From: an uncultured Bacilli bacterium
GTDB taxonomy: Bacteria > Bacillota_I > Bacilli_A > RF39 > UBA660
Assembly (NCBI GenBank): GCA_934169415.1
Contig: CAKPNP010000001.1
Span: forward strand, 25,854-89,853
Length of the DNA stretch: 64,000 nucleotides
Reading direction: 5' to 3'
Shown here piece after piece: positions 7,941 through 19,597 of the stretch (its first letter is position 1; each line of letters opens with the position of its first letter). The notes beneath the pieces are model-generated. The model ran no database searches. It was not told the origin of the DNA and saw nothing but the letters and a program-made list of their open reading frames with translations. Both the position numbers and the translations under genes were made by a program.

Positions 7941-8306
7941 ATGGCACGTATTAAAGGTGTAGATATACCAAATAATAAAAGAATAGAAATAGCATTAACT
8001 TATATTTATGGAATTGGTAGAAGTTTATCAAACCAAATTTTAAAGGATGCTAATATTGATATTAATAAAAGAGCTGGTGAACTAGATAATGACGAATTAG
8101 CTAGAATTCGTGATGAAGTTAACAAATATATGACTGAAGGAGATCTTCGTCGTGAAGTTAACATGAACATTAAAACAAAGATGGAAATAAATAGCTACCA
8201 AGGTACTCGTCATAAAAAAGGATTACCAGTAAGAGGTCAAAGAACAAATCGTAATGCGCGTACTCGTAAGGGTAAAGGTAAAGTAGTAGCTAATAAGAAA
8301 AAATAG
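7941..8306 (+). CDS. rpsM: 30S ribosomal protein S13
   Basis: 121 aa with [27 protein letters not shown]13. Confidence 0.96.
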
Positions 8307-8328
8307 ACTTTAAAAGGAGGTTAATTTT

Positions 8329-8712
8329 ATGGCTTATAAAGCAAGAAAGAGAAAAATTAAAAAGAACATTCCTGAAGGTAAAGCATATATTCAATCAACA
8401 TTCAATAACACTATTGTAACTATTAGTGATATGGATGGTAATGCTATAAGTTGGGCATCAGCTGGAACTTTAGGTTTTAAAGGAAGTAAGAAATCAACTC
8501 CATTCGCTGCTGGAATGAGTGCTGAAGCTGCTGGTAAAGCTGCTGTAGATATGGGAATGAAAAAAGTAGCAGTATTTGTAAAAGGATTAGGATCAGGTAG
8601 AGAAACTGCAATCCGTTCATTACAAACTGCAGGTTTAGAAATAACAACCATCACTGATGTAACACCAATCCCACATAACGGATGTCGTCCACCAAAACGT
8701 CCAAGAGGATAA
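8329..8712 (+). CDS. rpsK: 30S ribosomal protein S11
   Basis: 127 aa with [29 protein letters not shown]11. Confidence 0.96.
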
Positions 8713-8731
8713 TAAAAGGAGGGTTTATTAA

Positions 8732-9682
8732 ATGCTAAACTTTGAAAAACCAACATATAAAATAACTGAATATGTTGAAAATAATAATTTTGGAAAATTT
8801 GAATTAGAACCACTTGAGAGAGGTTTTGGTAATACTATAGGTAATGCTTTACGTAGAGTAATGTTATCTAGTATGCCAGGTAGTGCAATAGTAGCCGTTA
8901 AAATAGACGGTGTTATGCATGAATTTCAAACTATCGAAGGTGTAGTAGAAGATGTTACAGCAATTATTTTAAATTTAAAAAATGTTGTACTTAAAAATAA
9001 TTCAGAAGAAGAACAAACTATATATTTACACGCTGATACTGAAGGTGTAGTAACAGCTGGTGATATCAAAACTAATGAATCAGTAGAAGTTATTAATAAA
9101 GATCAAGTAATAGCAACGCTTGCTAAAGGTGGAAAACTTGACATGGAATTATTAGTAAGAAATGGACGTGGATACGTTCCTGGAGATAAAAATAAACAAT
9201 ATATTGAAAATTCTAAATTAGGATTTATTCCAATTGATGCGTTATATTCTCCAATTGAAAAAATTAGCTATGAAGTAGAAAATGCCCGTGTAGGACAAGA
9301 TGCTAGTTATGATAAATTAGTTTTATATGTAAATACAAATGGTTCTTTAAGACCTGAAGAAGCTATTGCTTTAGGTTCTAAAATATTAATTGAACACTTC
9401 AATATTTTAACAGAATTATCAGAAATAGCTGATATGACTGGTATTATGAGTGCTAAACAAGAAGATAGCAAAATTAAGAAATTAGAAACACCAATTGAAG
9501 ATTTAGATTTCTCTGTAAGAGCATTTAATTGCTTAAAGAGAGCTAATATTAATACATTAGGTGATTTAACAGAAAAATCAGAACTTGAAATGATGAAAAT
9601 CCGTAATTTAGGTAAGAAATCATTAAAAGAAGTTATTGATAAGATTAAAGGCATGGGACTTAGATTCCGTGACGAAGACTAG
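8732..9682 (+). CDS. rpoA: DNA-directed RNA polymerase alpha subunit
   Basis: 316 aa with RpoA N-terminal and C-terminal domains ([15 protein letters not shown]; the C-terminal domain reads [22 protein letters not shown]). Confidence 0.96.
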
Positions 9683-9693
9683 GAGGTAATTTT

Positions 9694-10047
9694 ATGTATA
9701 GAAAATTAGGTCGTACTAATAAACATAGAAGAAGCATGCTAGCTAACTTAACTAAAGATGTTATCATGAATGAAAAAATTACTACAACTGAAACAAGAGC
9801 CAAAGAAGCACGTAAATTCGTTGATAAAATGATTTCTTATGGTAAGGATGGATCTTTAGTAGCTAGAAGAAAAGCATTAGCTTTCTTACAAAACGATACA
9901 GAAGCAGTTAAAAAAGTATTTGACGTTTTAGCACCTCGTTATGCTAAACGTAATGGTGGATATACTAGAATAATTAAGCTTGATGAACGTCGTGGAGATG
10001 ATGCTTTAATGGTTATTTTAGAATTAGTTGAAGAGGATGCTAAATAG
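9694..10047 (+). CDS. rplQ: 50S ribosomal protein L17
   Basis: 117 aa with [20 protein letters not shown]17. Confidence 0.95.
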
Positions 10048-10058
10048 CATTCTTTTTT
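10031..10058 (+). repeat. Direct repeat copy 1 (28 bp, AAGAGGATGCTAAATAGCATTCTTTTTT), i.e. the rplQ 3' end plus terminator
   Basis: An identical 28-mer recurs at 11477-11504. The two copies bracket the two zinc-ribbon/bPH genes. Confidence 0.85.
10035..10058 (+). terminator. Rho-independent terminator of the ribosomal/rpoA operon
   Basis: Stem GGATGC/GCATTC (one G-U pair), loop TAAATA, then TTTTTT. It overlaps the rplQ stop codon. Confidence 0.6.
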
Positions 10059-10137
10059 CATAATTATATAATAATAAAGTACTAAAATAGGTTTTAAATA
10101 AAATTATGAATATGTTTATTCAATTATCTTAAAAATT

Positions 10138-10167
10138 GTTGCAAAAATGTTTGAAATATTATATACT
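10138..10167 (+). promoter_or_regulatory. Putative sigma-A promoter for the zinc-ribbon/bPH gene pair
   Basis: TTGCAA (10138-10143), an 18-nt spacer, then TATACT (10162-10167), followed by RBS AAAGGAGA. Confidence 0.35.
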
Positions 10168-10205
10168 AAGCTTAATTAATTTTGTAAAAGGAGAATGTGA
10201 AATAT

Positions 10206-10784
10206 ATGTTTTGTGAGAACTGTGGTAACAAGTTACCAGAAGAATCAAAATTTTGTCCTAGTTGTGGTGCTAGCATAACACATGTTAATGTAGATTCATC
10301 AAGTGAAAAATTATTAGATACAGAAATACAATTAAGTGTACGTCCAAGTTATAAATTTGGATATATGTTATTACCAGAATTAATTGTATGTGGGATTTTT
10401 AGTTTAATGATGGGTCTAATATTTGGAATAGCAAACTTTCGTATGGGAATTGTAGCATTTTTAATAAACTTTGTGATTTTATTTGCTACAGTAATTTTAA
10501 AGGCAATAATAACTAAAAAACAATATAATAATTTTTGTTATGATTTTTATAAAACGAAAGTTGTCTACAAAGATAAATTTTTAAATTTATCTGAAAAGGA
10601 AGTAAAATATAAATATATAAGAGAAATAACAATGCGTCAAACATTCGTACAAAGATATTTTAATTTAGGAGATATTATATTATTTACTAATGCAGAAAAT
10701 AGTTATGGCAATGGTATCCGTATTGTTAATGTTGAAAATGTGGAAGACATTTATAAAAATATAAAATCTATTATTAACATTTAA
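10206..10784 (+). CDS. Membrane protein: N-terminal zinc-ribbon, 2 TM helices, C-terminal bPH_2 (DUF304/YdbT-like) domain; paralog A
   Basis: MFCENCGNKLPEESKFCPSCG is a zinc ribbon. Two hydrophobic helices follow, then a PH-like tail with KYKYIREITM. The track ORF starts at GTG 10197, but the ATG at 10206 has proper RBS spacing. Confidence 0.7.
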   Translation: MFCENCGNKLPEESKFCPSCGASITHVNVDSSSEKLLDTEIQLSVRPSYKFGYMLLPELIVCGIFSLMMGLIFGIANFRMGIVAFLINFVILFATVILKAIITKKQYNNFCYDFYKTKVVYKDKFLNLSEKEVKYKYIREITMRQTFVQRYFNLGDIILFTNAENSYGNGIRIVNVENVEDIYKNIKSIINI

Positions 10785-10813
10785 TCAATTTTATAATAAA
10801 AGGAGAGATAAGT

Positions 10814-11425
10814 ATGTTTTGTAAAAATTGTGGATTAGAAATGGATAGTAATGCTAAGTTCTGTTCAAAATGTGGTACTCCTAGGTCAATGGAGCAACCA
10901 CAAGTAAGGAAAGTTATAGAAGATAATAATATAAAATTTCAATTAAAACCAAAATTTAATTTAATATATGATTTTATAATAAATAGTTTATATGTTTTAT
11001 GCTATGGAGCAATTCTCATAATATATGCTTATACTTTTAATTTATGGGTTATTATGATATCAATTATAGTAATAATTACTTCTATAAAAACATTGTTAGA
11101 TAAAAAACAACATGATAGTTTAGAATATAACTTTTATGCTACAAAAGTAGAATATAAGGATGGATTTTTTAATAAAGAACAGAAAGAATTGAAATATAAA
11201 TATATAAGAGAGATTACTATGTCACAGAATATTTTAGAAAGAATTTGTGGTATTGGAACAATTAGAATATTTACCAATGCTTCTAATTATCAATATAATA
11301 TTTATAGGAATAGAAATAGAGAAATAATTAAAAATGGTATTTATATTCATTGTGTAGATAATGTAGAAGAAAAATATAAAATTATTAAACAAATTATTGA
11401 TGAGGGTACACCTGAAGAATATTAG
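10814..11425 (+). CDS. Membrane protein: zinc-ribbon, 2 TM, bPH_2 domain; paralog B
   Basis: MFCKNCGLEMDSNAKFCSKCG, then TM helices, then the same KYKYIREITM block as paralog A. RBS AAAGGAGAG. Confidence 0.7.
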   Translation: MFCKNCGLEMDSNAKFCSKCGTPRSMEQPQVRKVIEDNNIKFQLKPKFNLIYDFIINSLYVLCYGAILIIYAYTFNLWVIMISIIVIITSIKTLLDKKQHDSLEYNFYATKVEYKDGFFNKEQKELKYKYIREITMSQNILERICGIGTIRIFTNASNYQYNIYRNRNREIIKNGIYIHCVDNVEEKYKIIKQIIDEGTPEEY

Positions 11426-11476
11426 TTATATAACTTTATAAAAAAGATATTTTAATAGTTATTTTAGAATTAATGT

Positions 11477-11504
11477 AAGAGGATGCTAAATAGCATTCTT
11501 TTTT
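11477..11504 (+). repeat. Direct repeat copy 2 (28 bp), a duplicate of the rplQ 3' end plus terminator hairpin
   Basis: Identical to 10031-10058, with one extra T in the U-tract. It probably also acts as a terminator for the paralog pair. Confidence 0.85.
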
Positions 11505-11560
11505 TACCTCCACTAAAAGTAGGTTTACGAATTAACAATCCACAGCTATAATTTATTTGG

Positions 11561-12499
11561 ATGGTGAATACTGTGGATTATAAAAAAATAGGAGAATTTA
11601 TACAAATAAGAAGAAAATATTTAGGGCTAACTCAAAGACAGTTAGCTGATAAATTAAAGGTAACAGACAAGGCAGTAAGTAAATGGGAAACTGGACTAGG
11701 TTGCCCTGATGTTTCTATATTAAGTAAACTATCAGATATATTATGCGTTAGTATAGGCGAAATATTAAATGGACAGTATAATGAAGATCTAAAAAATAAT
11801 TCTGATTTTATAAAAAATGCTGTGGATTATTCGAAGAAAATAACAGAAGAAAATTTTTATACAAAATTAAGAAAAATACTTTATATTATTTTAATAGTTA
11901 TTGTTTTATATATTTCTTTTATGGGAATAAAACAGTTCATATATATAAATGGCGAAACTGAATTTAAAAGCTCCACTAATGATTTAGCTTATATTGAATA
12001 TGAAAAATTAAAAGAAAATACAAAAATAATAAAAGAAAATAATTATTTTACAAATATAAATCCTGATTATTTGAATGAGTTAAATTATTTAGTTAAAAGA
12101 ATTGAATATATTAATTTATTAAATAGTAGAAAAGTAATAATTAAAAATACAGATTTATTAAATATAAAAAGTTTAATAATAAATATAAATTCATTTGATA
12201 ATAGACTTTTACACATATTGGAAATTATAGATAAAGATAATTATAAGTATTATGATTTAGGTATTTCTTATGTAGATAAAGATTATATATTTGATGTCGA
12301 TGGATATTTTGAGGAAATGAATATAAATAGTAATAATATGAAAAATTATTATTCAAGAAAATTATATGAATATAGTGAAATAGGAAATAGTAATACTACA
12401 TTAAAAGTTTATTATGAACAATTTGGTATAACATTATCTAAGTTAAATAAAATTTTAGAATTTATAATAGAAGTGGGTGATGCAAATGAAAATAATTAA
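11561..12499 (+). CDS. Membrane-anchored XRE-family HTH transcriptional regulator (HTH_3, single TM, extracytoplasmic domain)
   Basis: The N-terminus IRRKYLGLTQRQLADKLKVTDKAVSKWETG is a Cro/C1-type HTH. A TM helix (ILYIILIVIVLYISFMGI) follows, then a ~190-aa C-terminal domain. Confidence 0.75.
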   Translation: MVNTVDYKKIGEFIQIRRKYLGLTQRQLADKLKVTDKAVSKWETGLGCPDVSILSKLSDILCVSIGEILNGQYNEDLKNNSDFIKNAVDYSKKITEENFYTKLRKILYIILIVIVLYISFMGIKQFIYINGETEFKSSTNDLAYIEYEKLKENTKIIKENNYFTNINPDYLNELNYLVKRIEYINLLNSRKVIIKNTDLLNIKSLIININSFDNRLLHILEIIDKDNYKYYDLGISYVDKDYIFDVDGYFEEMNINSNNMKNYYSRKLYEYSEIGNSNTTLKVYYEQFGITLSKLNKILEFIIEVGDANENN

Positions 12500-12884
12500 T
12501 ATTCTATTATACAAATTAAATAATTTATTAGCACTTATGTTATCCACAGTATATACTATTTTTGTATACGTATACTTAAATGAATCTGTTTTATCTACAC
12601 TATTATTTTTCTTGTTATCTGTACTTTTACTAATTAGTTTTACAATAGGATATAAAAAAATAAACACTAAGTATAATGTGTTAAATTTTATATTGTTATT
12701 ATTTATATTGCTTAATATTTTTAGGCCTTATATTGATTCATTAATAAGTCCTAATTTAGTTTATAATTTAAAATTAAATTTTTTGTTTAGTTATGTCATA
12801 TTTGAACAAAATTTTATAATAATTACTATATTTATGATTATATTATTAATAGTGAATAGTATTTATTATTTTATAAAAAAATAA
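12477..12884 (+). CDS. Hypothetical small integral membrane protein (4 predicted TM)
   Basis: An ORF with four hydrophobic segments. AT-rich DNA produces such ORFs easily, so support is weak. Confidence 0.35.
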   Translation: MMQMKIINILLYKLNNLLALMLSTVYTIFVYVYLNESVLSTLLFFLLSVLLLISFTIGYKKINTKYNVLNFILLLFILLNIFRPYIDSLISPNLVYNLKLNFLFSYVIFEQNFIIITIFMIILLIVNSIYYFIKK

Positions 12885-12925
12885 ATTGATAAAAATATAG
12901 ATATGTATTATACTTATAGTAGGAG

Positions 12926-13561
12926 ATGATAAAATTGAATAAATTTAATAAAATATTTTTAGGCTTTTTAGTATTTGTAACATTAACAGGATGTAGCTTA
13001 TCTTTTGATGATAATAAAGATGTATCTGAAGATAACAATATCAAAGTAGTAGATGCTATTAATAGTTTTTCTAACCTATCTTATTCTAATAAAATAAAAG
13101 GTGAATTACCTGAAATAGTTGGTTATTCTAGTTCTACTATTAATAGTATAAATAAAAGTATATTATCTGAAAATTTACTTAATTTTTATGATTCTAATAT
13201 TGAATCTGCTACAATTAAATATGATTATGTTATAAAAAATGGTATACTTATTATTTCTACTGAGACAAAAATAAGTCCATGGAATGCATCTGGAAATGGA
13301 GAATTTTATTATTTTCATTTTTACGATATTAAAAACGATAAAGAACTTAAACCATATGATGGATTAAAAGCTTTAGGATTTAGTGATGAAGATTTATTAA
13401 ATAATTCTAGTAATTGTTCTTTTGAAAATGGGGAACCAGGTAATAAATGTAGTATTGATGCAATCAAATCTGATTTAAATTTAGAATCTAGAAGTAGATG
13501 CTCAAAAATAACTGTGGAAAACGGTAATATTAAACTTGATTTAACAAATTGGTGCATATAA
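12926..13561 (+). CDS. Hypothetical lipoprotein
   Basis: Signal peptide plus lipobox LTGC (FLVFVTLTGCSLSF). RBS AGGAGAT. Confidence 0.6.
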   Translation: MIKLNKFNKIFLGFLVFVTLTGCSLSFDDNKDVSEDNNIKVVDAINSFSNLSYSNKIKGELPEIVGYSSSTINSINKSILSENLLNFYDSNIESATIKYDYVIKNGILIISTETKISPWNASGNGEFYYFHFYDIKNDKELKPYDGLKALGFSDEDLLNNSSNCSFENGEPGNKCSIDAIKSDLNLESRSRCSKITVENGNIKLDLTNWCI

Positions 13562-13584
13562 AAAATAGTGATAAACACTATTTT

Positions 13585-14118
13585 TTAATTACTTCTTTTA
13601 TCTATAATTCCTTTATACCCTAAATCGTTATTTTTTAGTAGTGTTATTAAATCATGAAATGGAATTATATTACTTTTTCTAAAATTATTTTCATTAATTA
13701 AATTATCAATTTCATCTATGCTTAAATAAAATACTTCATCTACTTCTGATTTTTGTAATTTTAAAGAATTTAAATCAATATTTTTTTTAATATAATAGCA
13801 ATCACTATAGCATTTATCATATTTTATTGTTTCATATAATGTGAAATCATCATATATATCAATACCAAGTTCTTCTTTAATTTCTTTTTTTACAGTGTAT
13901 ATGCTAGAATCTTTATATGTTACATGGCCACCAGTAGTTGCAATTTCATTATTTTTTTCTTTTGAACATTTTTGTATTAAAAACTTATCATCTTCGTTTT
14001 GAATAAAAATTAATACAATTCTAAAATATCTTCCTTTTTCTATACTTAATTTATTACATCTTTCAATGTATTCATTTATAACATTATTATTATCATCATA
14101 AAGAGCTAATTTTTCCAT
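13585..14118 (-). CDS. Nudix-hydrolase-like protein (Nudix box with E-to-D and R-to-K substitutions)
   Basis: GGHVTYKDSSIYTVKKEIKEELGI fits G-x5-E-x7-REUxEExGU apart from D and K at the first E and the R. 177 aa. Confidence 0.55.
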   Translation of the reverse strand: MEKLALYDDNNNVINEYIERCNKLSIEKGRYFRIVLIFIQNEDDKFLIQKCSKEKNNEIATTGGHVTYKDSSIYTVKKEIKEELGIDIYDDFTLYETIKYDKCYSDCYYIKKNIDLNSLKLQKSEVDEVFYLSIDEIDNLINENNFRKSNIIPFHDLITLLKNNDLGYKGIIDKRSN

Positions 14119-14241
14119 CTAACCACCTTTTAAATTATATATAAAATAAAAACTGCTGTCAATTTAAATGTCAAAATAATGCATTAAATCATTGTTTAAT
14201 TTTCTATTTTTTTGTATAATGAATATATCCGGGGTGGTATA

Positions 14242-14991
14242 ATGAAAATATTAATAACAGGAGCTTCATCAGGTCTTGGAGCTACATTTGCAAGGTTACT
14301 TGCTCGTGATGGACATGAATTAATACTAGTTGCTAGAAGAGTAAAAAAATTAGAAGCCTTAAAAAAAGAACTAGGTGATAATGTAAAGATTATAGATTTG
14401 GATATTTCTAGTAGCTACAATTGTATGAAACTTTATAATGAGGTAAAAAAAGAAAAAATAGATGTATTGATAAATAATGCTGGTTTTGGAATATATGGAG
14501 AGTTTGATAATATTAAAATCGATAAAGAATTAGATATGATTGATTTGAATATCAAAACTGTTCATATGTTAACTAAACTATTTTTAAAAGACTTTGCTAA
14601 AAGAGACTTTGGTTATATATTAAATGTAGCAAGTCTTGCGGCATTTACACCAGGCCCACTTATGAGTACTTATTATGCTACAAAGTCATATGTTTATAGT
14701 CTTACAATGGGAATAAAAAAGGAGCTTGAAGAAAAATGTTCAAATGTTTATATTGGATGTTTATGTCCAGGTCCTGTAAATACTGAGTTTGAACATGTTG
14801 CAAAGGTTAAATTTGATACTAAATTATTGGATAGTGAATATGTTTGTTCATATGCAATAAAATGTATGTTTAAAGAAAAAAGTTTAATTATACCTGGATT
14901 TGGGAATAAGGTAAAATATTATTTATCAAAAATATTACCATCAGATATTAAAATGAATAGCATATATAAAATGCAAAAAAGAGGAGATTAA
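14242..14991 (+). CDS. Short-chain dehydrogenase/reductase (SDR) family oxidoreductase
   Basis: MKILITGASSGLG, the TGxxxGxG Rossmann motif, plus the catalytic YxxxK (YYATKSY). The ATG at 14242 is preferred over the track start. Confidence 0.85.
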   Translation: MKILITGASSGLGATFARLLARDGHELILVARRVKKLEALKKELGDNVKIIDLDISSSYNCMKLYNEVKKEKIDVLINNAGFGIYGEFDNIKIDKELDMIDLNIKTVHMLTKLFLKDFAKRDFGYILNVASLAAFTPGPLMSTYYATKSYVYSLTMGIKKELEEKCSNVYIGCLCPGPVNTEFEHVAKVKFDTKLLDSEYVCSYAIKCMFKEKSLIIPGFGNKVKYYLSKILPSDIKMNSIYKMQKRGD

Positions 14992-14993
14992 AT

Positions 14994-16013
14994 ATGAAAA
15001 TAAGTTATTATCTAAAAGTTATTAGTGGCACTAGTTTTAAGAAAATGTTTAATGTTATTGATAAAGTGTCTAAAAAAACAGATAAATCGAAACCTTATAT
15101 ATTTTTTGATATGATCAATTGTGGAATTAGATATGGTGCAGGATATAATGATTATAATATATTTGCGTATTATAACATGAATCATAAACAAAGAAAAACA
15201 TATATAACAAGAATGAAGAATAAAAAATTAATTATGTATTGTAATGATCAAAATTATTCACATATATTTAATAATAAAAATGAATTTAATAAGATATTTA
15301 AAAAATATTTAAATAGAGAATATTTAGATTTGGAAAATATTACATATAAAGATTTTTCTAATTTTATGAAAAATAAAGATGTTATATTTGCTAAACCAAA
15401 TGTTGGAGAAAGTGGAAAAGGCATAGAAAAATTAAAGAAAAGCGATTTTAAAACATTAAAAGAAATGTTTGAATATGTTACTAATAAAGATAAGAATTTT
15501 GGTGTAATTGAAGAACAAATTATTCAACATGAAACTTTAAATAAATTGTACCCTTTAGCAATTAATTCTTTAAGAATAGTTTCTATAGTTGTAGATGGAA
15601 TACCACACATTGTTTATGTAGTATCTAAAATGGGAAATGAAGGTAAATTTGTAGATAATATGGAAAACAGTGGTTTATGTTGTCCTGTTGATACAGAAAC
15701 TGGTAAAATTTCTAATGTTGCTCATACTTCAAAATTAATTACTTATGATACCCATCCATACACTAATATTAAATTAATTGGTTATGAATTACCTTATATA
15801 AAAGAGGCTATGGAACTTGTTAAAAAAGCCGCTTTAGAGGTGCCACAAATAAAATATGTGGGTTGGGATGTATTTATAGGTCCAAATGGTCCTGGTATAA
15901 TAGAAGGTAATGATTATCCAGGATATGACTTTTGGCAGTTACCAGAACATACACCTGATAAAATTGGTTTAGTCCCATATTATAATAGCTTAATTAAAGA
16001 TTTAAAATTATAA
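14994..16013 (+). CDS. ATP-grasp family protein, sugar-transfer-associated (TupA-like)
   Basis: 339 aa with FAKPNVGESGKGIEKL and a downstream acidic/Asn ATP-grasp core. It resembles the TupA-like ATP-grasp enzymes found in cell-wall polymer loci. Confidence 0.55.
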   Translation: MKISYYLKVISGTSFKKMFNVIDKVSKKTDKSKPYIFFDMINCGIRYGAGYNDYNIFAYYNMNHKQRKTYITRMKNKKLIMYCNDQNYSHIFNNKNEFNKIFKKYLNREYLDLENITYKDFSNFMKNKDVIFAKPNVGESGKGIEKLKKSDFKTLKEMFEYVTNKDKNFGVIEEQIIQHETLNKLYPLAINSLRIVSIVVDGIPHIVYVVSKMGNEGKFVDNMENSGLCCPVDTETGKISNVAHTSKLITYDTHPYTNIKLIGYELPYIKEAMELVKKAALEVPQIKYVGWDVFIGPNGPGIIEGNDYPGYDFWQLPEHTPDKIGLVPYYNSLIKDLKL

Positions 16014-16029
16014 AAAAATGTAGAGATTT

Positions 16030-17280
16030 CTACATTTTTTCTTTTACAGTATTTATACTATTAACTAATATTTCAAGACCTTTTTTTAAATAATCATCAT
16101 CTATTGTAAGTGCAGGCATTAATTTAACAACACTATTATTTCTTCCTGCTCTTTCAAGCACTAATCCATTTTTAAAACATTCACTAACTATAGCTTTAGA
16201 TAGTTTTTCATCATGAACATCTATTCCCCAAATAAGTCCTATTCCTCTTATATCGTAATCTTTAATGTTATTTGTAAGATATTCTTTTACTATTTTTTCT
16301 TTTTCTTTTACTTTTGCTTCGATATTTTCTTTTTTCATAAATTCTAATCCAGCTTTAGCAGTTATCATAGAAGGCATAAAACCTCTAAATGTACCATTAT
16401 GTTCACCTGGAGACCAAATATCTAATTCTTTTTTAATTAGTGTCATAGCAAGTGGAAGTCCAATTCCACCAATTGATTTAGAAACTGTTACCATATCTGG
16501 AACTATATTAGCTCTTTCAAATGAGAAAAAGTTACCTGTTCTACAATTACCAACTTGTATTTCATCACAAATCATTAATATATCGTATTTATCACATATT
16601 TCTCTAATACCTTTTAAGAATGATTCTTCAAATACATAAACTCCACCTTCTGCTTGTACAGTTTCAAGTACTATAGCAGCAGGTAATTCAATACCAGAAT
16701 GATCATCAGATAATATTGTATCTAGGTAATTTATTACATCTAAATCTTTAAACATATAAGGAGATGGAATGTGCGTTACATTATTTAGTGGAATACCAGC
16801 ACCTTTTCTAGAATCTCTATCACTAGTAAGTGAAATAGAACCTAAAGTCATACCATGGAAGCATCCCATAAGTGCAAATATATTTGTTCTTTTTTTTACT
16901 TTTCGAGCTAATTTTAAAGCTGCTTCAATAGCGTTTGTACCAGTAGGACCAGTAAATTGGATTTTATAATTTAATCCTTTAGGTATTAATACTTCTTCTT
17001 CAAAGTATTTTATAAATTCTCTTTTTGGTTCAGCATACATATCAAGTGAATGTATTATTCCATCACTGCTTAAATATTCGATTAATTTTTCTTTTATATA
17101 CGGATTATTATGTCCATAGTTTAGTGCTCCAGCTCCACAAAAGAAATCTATATATTCTTTATTGTTTGTATCAATTAAAGTTGAGCCTTTAGCGTATTTA
17201 AATTCGGTAGGAAAAGTTCTACAATAACTTCTTACCTCTGATTCGTATAATTCATATGTTTCTTTCATTTTATCACCCAT
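16030..17280 (-). CDS. Class III PLP-dependent aminotransferase, diaminobutyrate--2-oxoglutarate transaminase (EctB)-like
   Basis: YESEVRSYCRTFPTEFKYAKGSTLID...YIDFFCGAGALNYGHNNP matches DABA-aminotransferase N-termini. 416 aa, with the PLP lysine region VSKSIGG. Confidence 0.8.
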   Translation of the reverse strand: MGDKMKETYELYESEVRSYCRTFPTEFKYAKGSTLIDTNNKEYIDFFCGAGALNYGHNNPYIKEKLIEYLSSDGIIHSLDMYAEPKREFIKYFEEEVLIPKGLNYKIQFTGPTGTNAIEAALKLARKVKKRTNIFALMGCFHGMTLGSISLTSDRDSRKGAGIPLNNVTHIPSPYMFKDLDVINYLDTILSDDHSGIELPAAIVLETVQAEGGVYVFEESFLKGIREICDKYDILMICDEIQVGNCRTGNFFSFERANIVPDMVTVSKSIGGIGLPLAMTLIKKELDIWSPGEHNGTFRGFMPSMITAKAGLEFMKKENIEAKVKEKEKIVKEYLTNNIKDYDIRGIGLIWGIDVHDEKLSKAIVSECFKNGLVLERAGRNNSVVKLMPALTIDDDYLKKGLEILVNSINTVKEKM

Positions 17281-17356
17281 TAAAATTATATCATATTTTG
17301 GTAAAAAAGATTAATTTAATTGAAAAATAATACTTTTTATAATATAATACTCTTTA

Positions 17357-18067
17357 GTGGTGAAGAGTATGAAAATATCTATAAATAGCTTAACTTTTAA
17401 ATATGATGATAATGTAATTTTTGATAAATTAAGATTAACTATTAAAGAAAATAAGTTTACTAGTATAATTATGTCAAATTCAAAAGGTAAAACAACTCTT
17501 TCTAAAATATTATCAGGTAATATTCATACAAATAAAGTAAGTATAGATAAAATAGCATCTACCAATCTAAAAGATAAAGTATATTTAGTTTCTAAGGAAA
17601 ATGATTTTGATAGTATTATAAAAAATATTAAATTAAACGAAAATCTAAATCAAGTATTATCTAAATTTAAATTGGATAATGTCTTAGAAATAGATGATTT
17701 AAATATGCATGAAAAAGTAACAATATCGCTAGTTAATGCATTAGTAAATAAATATGAAATAATAGTTTTAGATGATGTTTATAACTTAATTGATATAGAT
17801 ATATTAAAAAAATTAAAAGATATTACTGTTATAAATATAACAAGTGATATAGAATCTACTTTAATATCAAATGAAGTTATATTTATAGATAAAAAAGTTG
17901 TTTTAAAAGGCAGTAGTAAAAAAGTATTAACTTGCGAGAGTGAAATAAATGATTTAGGATTTAAATTACCTTTTATAATAGAATTATCTAATAGATTAAA
18001 ATTTTATGATTTAATAGATAAAGATTATTATGATATGAAATTGTTGGTGGATGAATTATGGAAATAG
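17357..18067 (+). CDS. ABC-type ATPase, EcfA-like, with degenerate catalytic motifs (probable start ATG 17366)
   Basis: The P-loop reads MSNSKGKTT (first Gly lost). The signature region reads NMHEK instead of LSGGQ, and the Walker B reads IIVLDD (D in place of the catalytic E). The gene occupies the ecfA1 position upstream of truA. Confidence 0.6.
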   Translation: MVKSMKISINSLTFKYDDNVIFDKLRLTIKENKFTSIIMSNSKGKTTLSKILSGNIHTNKVSIDKIASTNLKDKVYLVSKENDFDSIIKNIKLNENLNQVLSKFKLDNVLEIDDLNMHEKVTISLVNALVNKYEIIVLDDVYNLIDIDILKKLKDITVINITSDIESTLISNEVIFIDKKVVLKGSSKKVLTCESEINDLGFKLPFIIELSNRLKFYDLIDKDYYDMKLLVDELWK

Positions 18068-18861
18068 AATTAGAAAATTTAAATTTAATTTATACTGATA
18101 ATGCAACTTATATTAAGCCTATTTTATCTGATATAAATATTAGTATTAAACCAGGTAAAATTAATGTATTAGTAGGTACTTATAAAAGTGGTAAGACTAC
18201 TATATTAAAATTAATAAGTGGTCTTATACTGCCAACTAGTGGCAAAATAAACATTAAAAACACAGAATTTCCATATGAAAAAATGGGTCTTATTTATAGT
18301 GAGAATGAATTCATTTTTAAAACTGTTTATGAGGAATTAAGTTATGCTATAAAACATTTAAATAAAAAAGTAACAGATATTCATAAGCATGTAATCTCTT
18401 CTTTAAATATGGTAGGATTAAATGAGAATTATTTAAATAGAAAAATTACTACATTAAGTGATTCTGAAAGAATTAAAATATCATTAGCTTTAGTTCTTGG
18501 AATAAATTCTAAAATTATTTTAATTGATGAAATAGATACTATATTAGATCCTAAATCATTAAATGAAATAATTAAATTATTAAATTTATTAAAAAAAAGA
18601 TATAATAAAACTATTGTTATAAGTACTAGAAATACTTCTTTAGCGCATATGATAGCTGATAATGTTATATTGTTAAATGATGGTAAAATAGTAGAATCAG
18701 GTAATAAATATGATATTTTTACTAAAGATTTATCTAAATATGGATTAAAAAATCCTAATATAATAGAATTTGAAAATATGGCTAGAAAAAAAGGTGTAAG
18801 ATTACTTTATAGAGATGAAATAAATGATTTAATGAAAGATATATATAGATATTGTAGGTGA
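18058..18861 (+). CDS. ABC-type ATPase, EcfA2-like (intact Walker A/B, degenerate signature)
   Basis: Walker A GTYKSGKTT and Walker B IILIDE are intact, but the signature reads LSDSE. It overlaps the preceding gene and precedes truA, as ecfA2 does in Firmicutes. Confidence 0.65.
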   Translation: MEIELENLNLIYTDNATYIKPILSDINISIKPGKINVLVGTYKSGKTTILKLISGLILPTSGKINIKNTEFPYEKMGLIYSENEFIFKTVYEELSYAIKHLNKKVTDIHKHVISSLNMVGLNENYLNRKITTLSDSERIKISLALVLGINSKIILIDEIDTILDPKSLNEIIKLLNLLKKRYNKTIVISTRNTSLAHMIADNVILLNDGKIVESGNKYDIFTKDLSKYGLKNPNIIEFENMARKKGVRLLYRDEINDLMKDIYRYCR

Positions 18862-18865
18862 TTAT

Positions 18866-19597
18866 ATGAGGTATCTTATAACATTTAGTTATGATGGTTC
18901 TAAGTTTAATGGATATCAAAAGCAGCCAAATACTAAAACAGTACAACAAGAAATAGAAAATGCTTTAAAAAAAATAAACTCAAATAATGAAGTTAAAATA
19001 TATGCATCAGGTAGAACTGATGCACTCGTTCATGCTTATAATCAAAAAGCCCATTTTGATTTAAATATAAATATTAGTCCGGAAAAGTTAAAAAAATCAC
19101 TAAATAGTTTGATTAGTGATTATATATATATTAAAAGTGTAGAAGAAGTAAGTAGTGATTTTCATGCAAGATTTAGTGTGAAATCAAAGGAATATATGTA
19201 TATAATTAATATGGGTGAATATAATCCTATAGAAAAAGATTATGTATATCAATATAATAAAAATTTGGATACTAAGGCTATTAATGAAGCTATAAAATAC
19301 TTTATAGGCACACATGATTTTAGAGCATTTACTAAAGTAGAATTAGAAAAAGATTTTGTAAGGACTATAATAGATGCTAAAGTAAAACTTGAAGACAGTA
19401 AAATTATAATATCATTTATTGGTACTGGTTTTTTAAGATATCAAGTAAGAAATATGGTTGGCTTACTTATAGAGGTAGGTTCACATAAGAAAAATGTAGA
19501 AGATGTTGTTAAAATATTAGAACTAAGAAATAGAACTAATTATACTCTAACTGCTAAGGGCTGTGGTTTATATTTGGTTGATGTATTATATAAATAA
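18866..19597 (+). CDS. truA: tRNA pseudouridine(38-40) synthase
   Basis: 243 aa with YLITFSYDGSKFNGYQKQPN and the catalytic Asp motif ASGRTDALVHAYNQ. Confidence 0.93.
   Translation: MRYLITFSYDGSKFNGYQKQPNTKTVQQEIENALKKINSNNEVKIYASGRTDALVHAYNQKAHFDLNINISPEKLKKSLNSLISDYIYIKSVEEVSSDFHARFSVKSKEYMYIINMGEYNPIEKDYVYQYNKNLDTKAINEAIKYFIGTHDFRAFTKVELEKDFVRTIIDAKVKLEDSKIIISFIGTGFLRYQVRNMVGLLIEVGSHKKNVEDVVKILELRNRTNYTLTAKGCGLYLVDVLYK

Follow-up and report, generated by a model that had tools for sequence, protein, structure and literature searches.

How did two paralogous accessory genes come to stand directly behind rplQ, the gene that closes the ribosomal superoperon, with a copy of the rplQ 3′ end on either side of them? 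The question concerns a locus in the window (the whole stretch of DNA analysed, 64 kb), where the gene order is rpsM-rpsK-rpoA-rplQ, followed by the two genes and by an XRE-type regulator. The original prediction had read this arrangement as the footprint of an insertion or duplication event. The coordinates of all features are collected in Table 1.

Table 1. Features of the rplQ locus in the window (positions in nucleotides of the window).
Feature	Position	Strand	Remarks
rplQ (ribosomal protein L17, 117 aa)	9694–10047	+	Last gene of the ribosomal superoperon; ORF, Pfam Ribosomal_L17 on the identical protein
Direct repeat, copy 1 (59 nt)	10000–10058	+	Last 16 rplQ codons, stop codon, terminator hairpin, T6
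Terminator hairpin 1 (predicted)	10030–10058	+	12-bp stem 10030–10041/10046–10057, loop 10042–10045, T-run 10053–10058
Cassette promoter-like site	10139–10167	+	TTGCAA-17-TATACT; consensus match only, 9/12, function inferred
Cargo gene 1 (192 aa)	10206–10784	+	N-terminal zinc ribbon, hydrophobic stretch, C-terminal bPH_2
Cargo gene 2 (203 aa)	10814–11425	+	Paralog of same architecture (Pfam), 37% identical to gene 1
Direct repeat, copy 2	11446–11504	+	31-nt decayed pseudo-rplQ 3′ end (6 substitutions, in-frame TAA), then the exact 28-mer
Terminator hairpin 2 (predicted)	11477–11505	+	11-bp stem 11477–11487/11492–11502, T7 run 11499–11505
HTH-gene promoter-like site	11524–11552	+	TTTACG-17-TATAAT; directly follows the rplQ terminator in strains L006–L009
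XRE-type HTH protein with membrane segment	11561–12499	+	Pfam HTH_3, 1.3e-11
13-nt direct repeat, left copy	11578–11590	+	TTATAAAAAAATA; left boundary of the second deletion
Membrane protein (135 aa)	12477–12884	+	Overlaps the HTH gene; absent together with the cassette in L006–L009
13-nt direct repeat, right copy	12871–12883	+	TTATAAAAAAATA

Extent and sequence of the repeat

The exact 28-mer AAGAGGATGCTAAATAGCATTCTTTTTT occurs twice in the 64-kb window (10031–10058 and 11477–11504), with no further match there at up to three mismatches; none of 100 dinucleotide shuffles contained a match to it, so that chance occurrence is not expected. It had been described as the final rplQ codons plus a hairpin, which agrees with the reading (E)-E-D-A-K-stop and with the TAG at 10045–10047. 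As to its length, the exact 28-mer stands, while the repeat as a whole is longer than the 28 bp first reported and extends over 59 nt (10000–10058 against 11446–11504). The two 59-nt copies are 90% identical, and all six mismatches fall within the first 31 nt, which are rplQ codons; the 28-mer part shows none in its 28 nt, against six in the adjoining 31 nt (p = 0.025). Homology ends on the right with the T-run, which is the end of the core transcription unit, and on the left at about position 10000, in an arbitrary codon, with nothing shared past the 59 nt. A GAT microhomology can be read at the left junction.

Read in the rplQ frame, the remnant codons of copy 2 give D-I-L-I-V-I-L-E-L-M-stop, and five of the six changes in the 31-mer replace G or C with A or T. 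Among the 40 rplQ ends listed for other species, 37 show 0–2 mismatches to the window's rplQ in the corresponding segment; six changes in a segment otherwise so uniform denote a decayed copy rather than the gene of another species. Derivation of the decayed 31-mer from another species' rplQ was rejected, since 39 of the 40 listed ends are at least as distant from it as the window's own rplQ, the lone exception being L047 (five mismatches, against six for the own rplQ). Moreover, a decayed in-frame coding remnant marks copy 2 as derived from rplQ and not as a convergent hairpin, and the species-specific bases of the 28-mer, present in both copies, indicate that the duplication arose within the lineage. 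Exact identity of the two 28-mers is limited to the window strain and L003; elsewhere copy 2 carries an A>G change in the loop (L001, L004) and a C in the T-tract (L004).

In a genome as AT-rich as this one (17–33% GC) short repeats are frequent, and two AT-rich hairpins might resemble each other by chance, or the pair might be an assembly artefact. This explanation is effectively refuted by the shuffles, by the coding remnant within the copy, and by the recurrence of the same structure in over 20 metagenome contigs that were assembled independently, with different assemblers and from different samples, which rules out an artefact of assembly.

Predicted terminator hairpins

Both copies have the features of an intrinsic terminator, i.e., a stem-loop followed by a U-tract, placed at the end of a transcription unit. 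Hairpin 1 (−14.7 kcal/mol, z = −4.2) contains the stop codon, divided between the loop and the 3′ arm, together with the whole 28-mer (10031–10058), whereas hairpin 2 folds at −11.1 kcal/mol (z = −2.8); the T-runs count six T in copy 1 and seven in copy 2. The stem holds just three G-C pairs. A simple terminator scan flagged neither copy because the T-run lies partly inside the stem, and Rfam returned nothing for 9600–11700 at E ≤ 1.

RNAalifold reported no structure on 68 rplQ ends, in which MAFFT had left the variable loops ungapped, and folding of each sequence on its own was used in its place. By this procedure 77 of 78 distinct related rplQ ends gave a hairpin of 5 bp or more across the stop codon, with compensatory variants in its arms (GATGC/GCATC, GATAC/GTATC, and AAGGC/GCCTT).

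A distance of 52 nt separates the second cargo gene's stop codon from the start of hairpin 2, and another 22 nt lie between the end of this hairpin and the next promoter-like site; among strains copy 2 varies in loop and T-tract only, never in the stem. Judged from its sequence and position, hairpin 2 is probably the terminator of the two-gene cassette. The proposal that the second copy recreates a terminator for the cassette is thus supported as a prediction, by the same hairpin and U-tract, the invariant stem, and the adjoining promoter-like site.

The gene pair between the copies

Apart from a promoter-like site, only the two paralogous genes lie between the copies, as had been anticipated, and both encode Zn_Ribbon_1 and bPH_2 (PF03703) domains. 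In the product of gene 1 these domains score 2.1e-8 and 1.3e-8, respectively, and over the two proteins bPH_2 reaches 35.4 and 36.2 bits (cut-off 22) and Zn_Ribbon_1 34.1 and 33.6 bits (cut-off 25). The hydrophobic stretch of gene 1 is read from the sequence as two membrane helices. For the start of this gene the ORF list has GTG at 10197, while ATG at 10206 agrees with the ribosome-binding site and with the gene calls of 192 aa in other strains. The two products match each other with a BLASTP E value of 6e-34.

YdbS/YdbT-type bPH_2 proteins share with this pair the placement of bPH_2 after two predicted transmembrane helices and the arrangement as adjacent genes, as in ydbST of Bacillus subtilis. 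The cargo proteins differ from them by an additional N-terminal zinc ribbon, and in NCBIfam and PADLOC the likeness exists at the domain level only. Neither cargo protein could be assigned to a family by PADLOC or NCBIfam, which showed no toxin, immunity, or defence-system match either and returned generic HTH matches only for the neighbouring regulator.

Homologs of the second gene number 154, the nearest at 60% identity, and the zinc-ribbon/bPH_2 pair is kept together in at least six unrelated genomic contexts; it is an old, conserved module. The original prediction had suggested searching for other loci where the pair is flanked by duplicated host sequence. None was found: flanking repeats were absent from all six loci in the three contexts examined, which makes the repeat a property of the rplQ site and not of the cargo. 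Together with the lack of a recombinase (see below), these repeat-free contexts argue that the pair is not a self-contained mobile cassette.

The GC content of the cargo (20–24%) matches that of neighbouring non-ribosomal genes, and foreign origin shows no sign in composition. A phage origin is unsupported as well, since a profile of the second cargo protein found no full-length homolog on viral contigs, where matches were N-terminal only (residues 1 to about 110 at most, many with the zinc ribbon only; 26–65% identity).

The rplQ site in related species

Comparison of the rplQ-downstream junction among relatives, one of the checks proposed at the outset, identified a lineage-specific insert. 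The zinc-ribbon/bPH pair follows rplQ in none of 80 related RF39-type species. In the closest of them, L010 and L022, rplQ and its terminator are followed by an SDR gene within 72–92 nt, and both share the downstream order SDR, ATP-grasp, aminotransferase.

Pseudo-rplQ 3′ ends were nevertheless encountered in two other lineages, L012/L013 and L078, with different cargo and different remnant lengths. The search for them gave three hits downstream, none upstream, and none in shuffles. The cargo of L012/L013 appears to be a nuclease-like gene, and that of L078 comprises paralogs of 327 and 333 aa. Across the independent cases the remnants measure 59 nt (in the window), about 45 nt, and more than 500 nt.

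One explanation to be weighed here is that a unit beginning inside rplQ, with the gene or genes behind it, underwent ordinary tandem segmental duplication and that the second cargo copy was later lost or replaced, so that a 59-nt remnant was left. Such a duplication does exist in L078, where a unit of pseudo rpoA end, rplQ, and downstream gene recurs in tandem at a period of about 1519 nt, about 800 nt of it 100% identical. However, homology in the window covers 59 nt only, with unrelated flanks, and the HTH and membrane protein genes that follow copy 2 are unrelated to the pair. The two paralogs, being only 37% identical and paired in many other genomes, are not local products, a second cargo copy or pseudogene after copy 2 was seen in none of 22 contigs, and an extra precise deletion would be required. 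We therefore regard this explanation as improbable. The original prediction had named a longer tandem duplication as the pattern that would speak against a cassette insertion; this pattern is absent at the locus and in all strains of the species, being confined to the unrelated L078.

A candidate for a third, older rplQ-terminator remnant upstream of the SDR gene (ATGTCAAAATAATGCAT, about 14168–14184) was not significant (an equal or better score was reached in 28 of 300 shuffles), and it was rejected as a sign of serial displacement. The interval between the paralogs and the region ahead of the lipoprotein-like gene contained no remnant.

Recombinases and mobile elements

Pfam searches of all ORFs from 10197 to 18067 detected no integrase, recombinase, or transposase. 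In precomputed Pfam annotations of about 20 kb around rplQ in nine strains, the only recombinase was an unrelated IS66 transposase located in L005, about 7.4 kb downstream of rplQ. Furthermore, the 120 ORFs examined behind rplQ in 36 species included integrases in one place only, a trio in L063, 3.7–7 kb away from rplQ, in a genome without the rplQ repeat. A literature search for rplQ as an integration site and for a "duplicated terminator" found nothing relevant.

These results bear on the possibility that a decayed integrative element left the copies as its attL and attR, its tyrosine or serine integrase having targeted the rplQ 3′ end and brought a replacement for it. The integrase and the rest of the element would later have been lost, or the cassette would be mobilised in trans, and strains free of the cassette would be site-specific excisions. 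Integrative elements inserting at the 3′ ends of tRNA, tmRNA, and ribosomal protein genes typically leave direct repeats of a few tens of nucleotides that cover the 3′ end of the conserved gene; the rplQ locus has such repeats, an intact gene with its 3′ end restored, and precise empty sites. The exact 28-nt block beside a diverged arm resembles a core site, and an XRE-type regulator lies directly downstream. In contrast to such elements, the rplQ insert is only 1.4 kb long, has a composition like that of the host's own genes, and encodes no integrase; no recombinase occurs in it or within about 7 kb on either side, and no integrase-bearing element abuts rplQ in the 36 representative relatives. 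The remnant lengths also vary, with no constant core among relatives, and the cargo pair lacks repeats elsewhere and full-length homologs on viral contigs. Considering this evidence, we find a decayed integrative element unlikely.

There is neither a transposase nor an inverted repeat joining the ends of the insert, as a transposon or insertion sequence would have, and a 59-nt duplication far exceeds the usual target-site duplications. Integron cassettes, bounded by attC, share with the rplQ cassette the promoter-proximal stacking of short cassettes, each with a hairpin-forming repeat. They differ in that no IntI-type integrase was found, the place of attC with its R and L boxes is taken by a copy of the rplQ end, which on reading its sequence lacks GTTRRRY/RYYYAAC core sites, and only two copies exist.

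Probable origin of the repeat

The observations at the locus and among relatives establish the repeat, the pseudo-coding remnant, the lineage-specific presence of the pair, the precise empty site, the return of pseudo-rplQ ends in other lineages, and the lack of any recombinase. We judge it rather probable that an old recombinational insertion, accompanied by duplication ("3′-end displacement"), left the 59-nt repeat as its scar at a gene-accretion hotspot. The initial reading as an insertion or duplication footprint is borne out to this extent by the decayed rplQ remnant, the absence of the pair from all 80 relatives, and the restriction of homology to 59 nt.

A ready-made module, consisting of the gene pair and its own promoter, would have been placed directly behind rplQ, the 3′ end of the rplQ unit being duplicated in the process. 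The most economical route would do without a dedicated recombinase. Incoming DNA with the order rplQ 3′ end, terminator, promoter, and gene pair would recombine homologously within the highly conserved ribosomal operon, and an illegitimate junction would attach its other end to the recipient rplQ, about 48 nt ahead of the stop codon; homology-facilitated illegitimate recombination would have this outcome, as would a circular intermediate integrating by a single crossover. The recipient's rplQ 3′ end, its terminator, and the older genes from the HTH gene onward would thereby be shifted downstream, and we infer that copy 2 is the original one. The displaced coding remnant would then have decayed through AT-biased substitutions and an in-frame stop, while hairpin and U-tract would owe their retention to a present role in terminating the cassette and insulating the next promoter. 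Displacement predicts limits of homology like those observed, with the right one at the T-run and the left one in an arbitrary codon. No donor sequence for the event was found in the JGI scan or in the strain contigs.

A point against displacement is the distribution of mismatches (0/28 against 6/31), for which one has to assume gene conversion or else selection that acts on the entire hairpin, loop included; it would also fit a recombinase core site. An alternative is that the cassette arrived first and that a 59-nt patch was copied behind the second gene separately, e.g., by template switching, and was kept as a terminator. Hairpins are known sites of stalling and template switching, and the right limit of the repeat does coincide with a complete functional unit of hairpin and T-run. 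Nevertheless, two independent events would be needed where one suffices, no common mechanism is known for ectopic insertion of 59 nt at a distance of 1.4 kb, and the recurring order of intact rplQ, new cargo, pseudo-rplQ end, and older genes would be left unexplained. We regard this alternative as improbable.

Less probable still is that the rplQ hairpin of RF39-type bacteria, with the stop codon embedded in it, serves as a dedicated cassette-capture site, at which an unrecognised trans-acting recombinase or a hairpin-directed mechanism would repeatedly insert short cassettes with their own promoters behind the ribosomal superoperon, duplicate the hairpin each time, and be able to excise them precisely. 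If true, this would be a functional analogue of integron attI/attC without an integrase encoded at the locus.

Displacement as favored here has parallels. In rhs, CDI, and T6SS arrays, C-terminal displacement has been attributed to homology-facilitated illegitimate recombination (PMC5361080). The rplQ locus shares with rhs, with the cdiA-CT/cdiI orphan arrays, and with the T6SS arrays of Vibrio cholerae the succession of intact gene, new cargo, decaying 3′ fragment on the same strand, and older genes, as well as the lack of a recombinase and the recurrence at one locus with different cargo (here L012/L013 and L078). It differs from them in its anchor, which is a ribosomal protein gene at the end of a superoperon instead of a polymorphic toxin gene; in its cargo, which is not a toxin-immunity pair; in the single displaced remnant detectable; and in the part kept, which is a predicted terminator and not a coding tip. 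By analogy, the locus appears to work like these displacement arrays without being a member of them. The rplQ scar is an ordinary kind of recombination scar and reveals no new mechanism.

On this reading of displacement, the scar would be a dated, directional record of accessory gene gain and loss in an uncultured gut lineage with a reduced genome (RF39-type Bacilli). New genes would accumulate behind the most conserved operon of the genome, the conserved sequence of which is an ideal homologous anchor, and transcription of the ribosomal operon would be kept apart from that of the newcomers by the duplicated predicted terminator. In practice, pseudo 3′ ends of core genes that close an operon may offer a simple marker for recombinase-free acquisitions in metagenome-assembled genomes.

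Probable loss of the cassette among strains

Four strains of the same species (L006–L009) have a precise empty site, with a single repeat copy followed directly by the flank of copy 2; exactly 1446 bp are gone, which corresponds to the cassette plus one repeat copy. These strains also lack the 1293 bp between the two 13-nt TTATAAAAAAATA repeats, with the HTH and membrane protein genes. They form two flank clades, one of them nested among cassette-bearing strains. L007 and the cassette-bearing L001 match at 85 of 86 flank positions, whereas the remnant has decayed at 6 of its 31 positions (Fisher p = 0.0013). Flanks so nearly perfect, together with a second deletion bounded by repeats, lead us to read the empty sites as deletion derivatives; most likely, the strains without the cassette lost it secondarily, by deletion through the direct repeat, and do not represent a pre-insertion state.

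Neither donor nor intermediate haplotypes (the pair behind rplQ with no remnant, or an intact HTH gene directly behind rplQ) were present, only full and doubly deleted ones being seen, and a scan of JGI metagenomes for the junction pattern of remnant or empty site gave 0 matches. The two deletions always co-occur, which the recombination model does not predict.

After the insertion, the two copies would have become a deletion substrate, and recombination between them would remove 1446 bp, giving the cassette-free strains of the human-gut population. The same duplicate that separates the transcription units would in this manner destabilise the insert and produce a presence/absence polymorphism among human-gut strains. 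Repeat-mediated deletion, whether RecA-dependent or by replication slippage, likewise removes one repeat unit with the intervening DNA (here 1446 bp); it accounts for the loss of the cassette, not for its origin, and there is nothing unusual in it. In the second deletion, L006–L009 have kept the promoter-like site of the HTH gene and its first codons, the body of the gene having been lost between the 13-nt repeats.

Direct repeat at the rplQ terminator

The original prediction that an exact 28-mer, AAGAGGATGCTAAATAGCATTCTTTTTT, lies at the end of rplQ and again behind two inserted genes was confirmed, with 0 matches in 100 dinucleotide-preserving shuffles and no third copy in the 64-kb window at ≤3 mismatches. 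The predicted length of 28 bp, however, holds only for the exact part, since the direct repeat reached 59 nt at 90% identity when the comparison was extended beyond the 28-mer, with all six mismatches within the first 31 nt. On the right, the repeat extends precisely to the T-run; on the left, it extends to about position 10000. No homology was found past the two copies, and the unrelated sequences behind them argue against a tandem duplication with subsequent loss, which we regard as very unlikely.

Copy 1 contains the end codons and stop of rplQ, with the stop codon located in the loop and 3' arm of a hairpin (-14.7 kcal/mol, z = -4.2) that is followed by a T6 run. Copy 2 translates as D-I-L-I-V-I-L-E-L-M-stop-E-D-A-K-stop and continues into the same hairpin (-11.1 kcal/mol, z = -2.8) and a T7 run. 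No Rfam match was obtained at the locus.

Features of the rplQ downstream region in the window
Feature	Position	Description
rplQ	9694-10047	True 3' end is copy 1
Direct repeat, copy 1	10000-10058	59 nt
Exact 28-mer, copy 1	10031-10058	
Hairpin of last rplQ codons	10030-10058	
Cassette promoter-like site	10139-10167	TTGCAA-17-TATACT, between the copies
Cargo gene 1	10206-10784	N-terminal zinc ribbon, two predicted membrane helices, bPH_2
Cargo gene 2	10814-11425	Same architecture: zinc ribbon, two predicted membrane helices, bPH_2
Direct repeat, copy 2	11446-11504	59 nt
Exact 28-mer, copy 2	11477-11504	
Second promoter-like site	11524-11552	Behind copy 2
13-nt repeat, first occurrence	11578-11590	
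13-nt repeat, second occurrence	12871-12883	
Two ABC ATPase genes	17357-19597	

The cargo paralogs, whose membrane helices were predicted by sequence reading, share 37% identity, and the insert has a GC content of 20-24%, like the adjacent non-ribosomal genes. Behind copy 2, the promoter-like site is followed by genes for an XRE-type HTH/membrane protein, an overlapping 135-aa membrane protein and a lipoprotein-like product, and then by a NUDIX gene on the opposite strand; SDR, ATP-grasp, aminotransferase, two ABC ATPase, truA, rplM and rpsI genes come further downstream. The ABC ATPases, encoded behind the aminotransferase gene, share no more than 27-44% identity with the ECF-type ATPases of related species. 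Their genes adjoin truA with a 4-nt gap, where many relatives have about 700-750 nt, room for an ecfT-like gene; the ECF transmembrane component therefore seems to be absent from this position in the species of the window.

Origin and decay of the second copy

Of 40 rplQ ends listed from other species, 37 had 0-2 mismatches to the rplQ of the window over the 31-nt coding segment, and the corresponding segment of copy 2 had 5-8 mismatches to every one of them. Five of its six differences from its own rplQ are changes of G or C to A or T; an in-frame stop arises through one of the six. The species-specific bases of the 28-mer (GAAGAGGATGC...GCATTC) are found in both copies. Judged by sequence comparison, this remnant is a decayed copy of the window lineage's own rplQ end.

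The contrast in mismatches between the coding part and the 28-mer (6/31 vs 0/28, Fisher p = 0.025) suggests that the hairpin is under constraint, though not absolute, since copy 2 varies in other strains of the species: loop A>G in L001 and L004, a C in the T-tract of L004, and an extra remnant mismatch in L003. The stem was unaltered in all strains compared. Full identity of the 28-mer in the window strain, loop included, may be due to selection, to gene conversion or to retention by chance.

The rplQ downstream region in related species

The identical L17 protein was found on human-gut metagenome contigs, and its closest relatives (82-94% identity) belong to uncultured "Bacilli" or "Tenericutes" MAGs, including Candidatus Faecisoma, Coprosoma and Scybalousia, which we read as an RF39-type group. 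Across 80 species, a variable stretch of about 50 nt to >6 kb separates rplQ from a conserved block (SDR, ECF-type ATPases, truA, rplM, rpsI). In two of these species (L010 and L022) only 72-92 nt lie between the rplQ terminator and SDR, so that the whole region from 10059 to about 14200 in the window is a lineage-specific accretion. Among the loci of the 80 species, L010 and L022 alone carry ATP-grasp after SDR, and L022 the aminotransferase too. No zinc-ribbon/bPH homolog follows rplQ in any of the 80 species. The predicted footprint of an insertion or duplication was supported with corrections.

In 77 of 78 distinct rplQ ends (L010-L089; mean -13.4 kcal/mol), the last codons contribute to a hairpin (≥5 bp) that spans the stop codon, with many compensatory arm variants. 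Arm changes swap the penultimate L17 amino acids (e.g., D-A vs D-T) and are compensated 3' of the stop codon; hence, the L17 C-terminus appears to co-evolve with the RNA structure. Six contigs with an RF39-type ribosomal operon (L040, L046, L049, L065, L078, L079) are filed under Muribaculaceae, Bacteroidaceae, Vescimonas and Sphaerochaetaceae, and are probably mis-binned or mislabelled.

Recurrence at rplQ in other lineages

Searching with each species' own terminator 28-mer (≤5 substitutions) returned three further copies in 484 kb of downstream sequence, and none in 543 kb upstream of rplQ or in shuffles. L012/L013 carry a pseudo end 1.3 kb downstream, with about 45 nt derived from rplQ, behind a gene that we read as a putative DUF1016/YhcG-like nuclease. 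Three copies of a promoter-like TTGCAA-N17-TATATT surround this gene (L012, 1466-2930; L013, 360-1810), which is uninterrupted in L013 (334 aa) but split in L012 (128 + 202 aa); a 15-codon ORF remnant separates the second promoter copy from the pseudo-rplQ terminator.

The L078 remnant, located between paralogous genes of 327 and 333 aa, comprises the rpoA end and rplQ sequence whose 5' part is decayed and internally deleted and whose 3' part is 100% identical. Identity over about 800 nt reaches into the downstream gene, the first halves of the two paralogs being 100% identical, and the case is a plain tandem segmental duplication. Behind rplQ, this contig has an array of five or six unannotated genes (7950-15230), a 41-nt leader ending in a T17 run before four successive genes, and three occurrences of a post-terminator 30-mer. 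Labelled Vescimonas coprocola, it is probably mis-binned, given its RF39-type ribosomal operon.

Remnant length differed in each case, which argues against a site-specific core. Given this variation, and the absence of any recombinase or transposase in or around the insert, an origin of the copies as decayed att sites of an integrative element is unlikely. Among the ORFs that follow rplQ in 36 representative species (120 in total), no integrases were found other than three consecutive tyrosine-recombinase genes (347, 326 and 409 aa) on the minus strand of L063 (4249-7442), 3.7-7 kb away from rplQ; no rplQ-derived repeat was found in L063.

The cargo pair in other contexts

For the second cargo protein, 154 homologs were recovered, none closer than 60% identity. 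Members of about 190 and 210 aa are adjacent in five of six contexts examined, the sixth being L096, whose contig stops just 5' of the larger gene. These neighborhoods are mutually unrelated: the genes lie upstream of hrcA-grpE, beside a glucosaminidase, near a Mob_Pre gene and CTP synthase, upstream of dnaX-ybaB-recR in a spore-former, beside IS remnants, or beside DUF3137. No repeats joining the upstream and downstream flanks exceeded chance (three contexts, six loci). Consequently, the paralog duplication is ancient and unconnected with the rplQ locus, and the bracketing repeat is a property of the rplQ site, not of the cargo; the pair is an old module rather than a mobile cassette with its own ends. 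In viral contigs, a profile search gave no full-length homolog, only matches to the N-terminal part. The pair is conserved across varied Firmicute contexts (L090-L100), including a spore-former with YpeB and SASP nearby, and the conserved adjacency suggests a putative obligate two-component membrane complex.

Proposed recombination mechanism

The simplest account, which we consider moderately probable from sequence comparison, invokes one recombination event and no dedicated recombinase. Incoming DNA carrying an rplQ end, terminator, promoter and the gene pair would have paired with the highly conserved ribosomal operon, its other end joining illegitimately about 48 nt 5' of the recipient rplQ stop codon; alternatively, one crossover within the same short stretch of homology could have brought in a circular intermediate. 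Intact rplQ would be kept, and the old 3' end, terminator and downstream genes displaced, after which the coding remnant would decay and the hairpin be retained as the predicted terminator of the cassette. No donor arrangement for the inserted pair was found. Later, separate copying of a 59-nt patch behind the pair is about as improbable as tandem duplication, and each of the three rival accounts has some tested feature against it.

A matching architecture, termed "C-terminal displacement" or "sequential displacement", is described for rhs, CDI and T6SS effector-immunity arrays and has been ascribed to homology-facilitated illegitimate recombination (PMC5361080). The rplQ locus resembles these arrays in how it works but does not belong to them, since neither its anchor nor its cargo is a toxin system; it offers a clear, if ordinary, example of a recombination scar in a hotspot of gene accretion. 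The present-day effect of the repeat is to permit precise cassette loss.

Strain polymorphism

Haplotypes were counted on classified contigs with identical L17. Twelve have rplQ followed by the pair, HTH, membrane and lipoprotein genes, and five, among them L006-L009, one of which is an NCBI MAG, have the lipoprotein-like gene directly behind rplQ. All 22 contigs with an identical second cargo protein share the same full architecture. Cassette-free strains carry a single repeat copy, then the flank found behind copy 2 in the window; this keeps the HTH promoter and first HTH codons, and a 13-nt repeat, TTATAAAAAAATA, marks its junction with the region 5' of the lipoprotein gene (L006-L009, at about 10440-10455). 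Of the two resulting gaps, each bounded by repeats, the first (1446 bp) corresponds to the cassette plus one 59-nt copy, and the second (1293 bp) to the body of the HTH gene together with the gene for the 135-aa membrane protein. Because the HTH gene start is retained, deletion is the sole sensible direction for the second gap.

Flanks of cassette-free L007 and cassette-bearing L001 are identical at 85/86 positions, compared with decay at 6/31 in the remnant (p = 0.0013), placing the duplication, by this comparison, much earlier than the split between these strains. By flank distance to the window, L006 and L009 (0.14-0.2%) fall inside the cassette-bearing clade, and L007 and L008 form a separate clade (0.9%). 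Together with the retained HTH start and the flank match, these clades indicate that cassette absence is secondary, through repeated origin or spread by homologous recombination. No intermediate haplotype with one deletion only was seen among the strains compared; this constant co-occurrence may point to a functional link between the pair and the HTH/membrane genes, or to the spread of a single deletion allele.

In L002/L126 (12130-13913 in L002), the HTH gene is called at only 225 aa without an HTH domain match, and may be 5'-truncated or frameshifted; the lipoprotein-like gene there is a divergent 223-aa allele (73% identical). In L005 (17749-20354), an IS66-family transposase gene lies behind the aminotransferase and the ATPase/truA block is swapped for a hybrid histidine kinase gene, indicating a rearrangement specific to this strain, some 7.4 kb downstream of rplQ.
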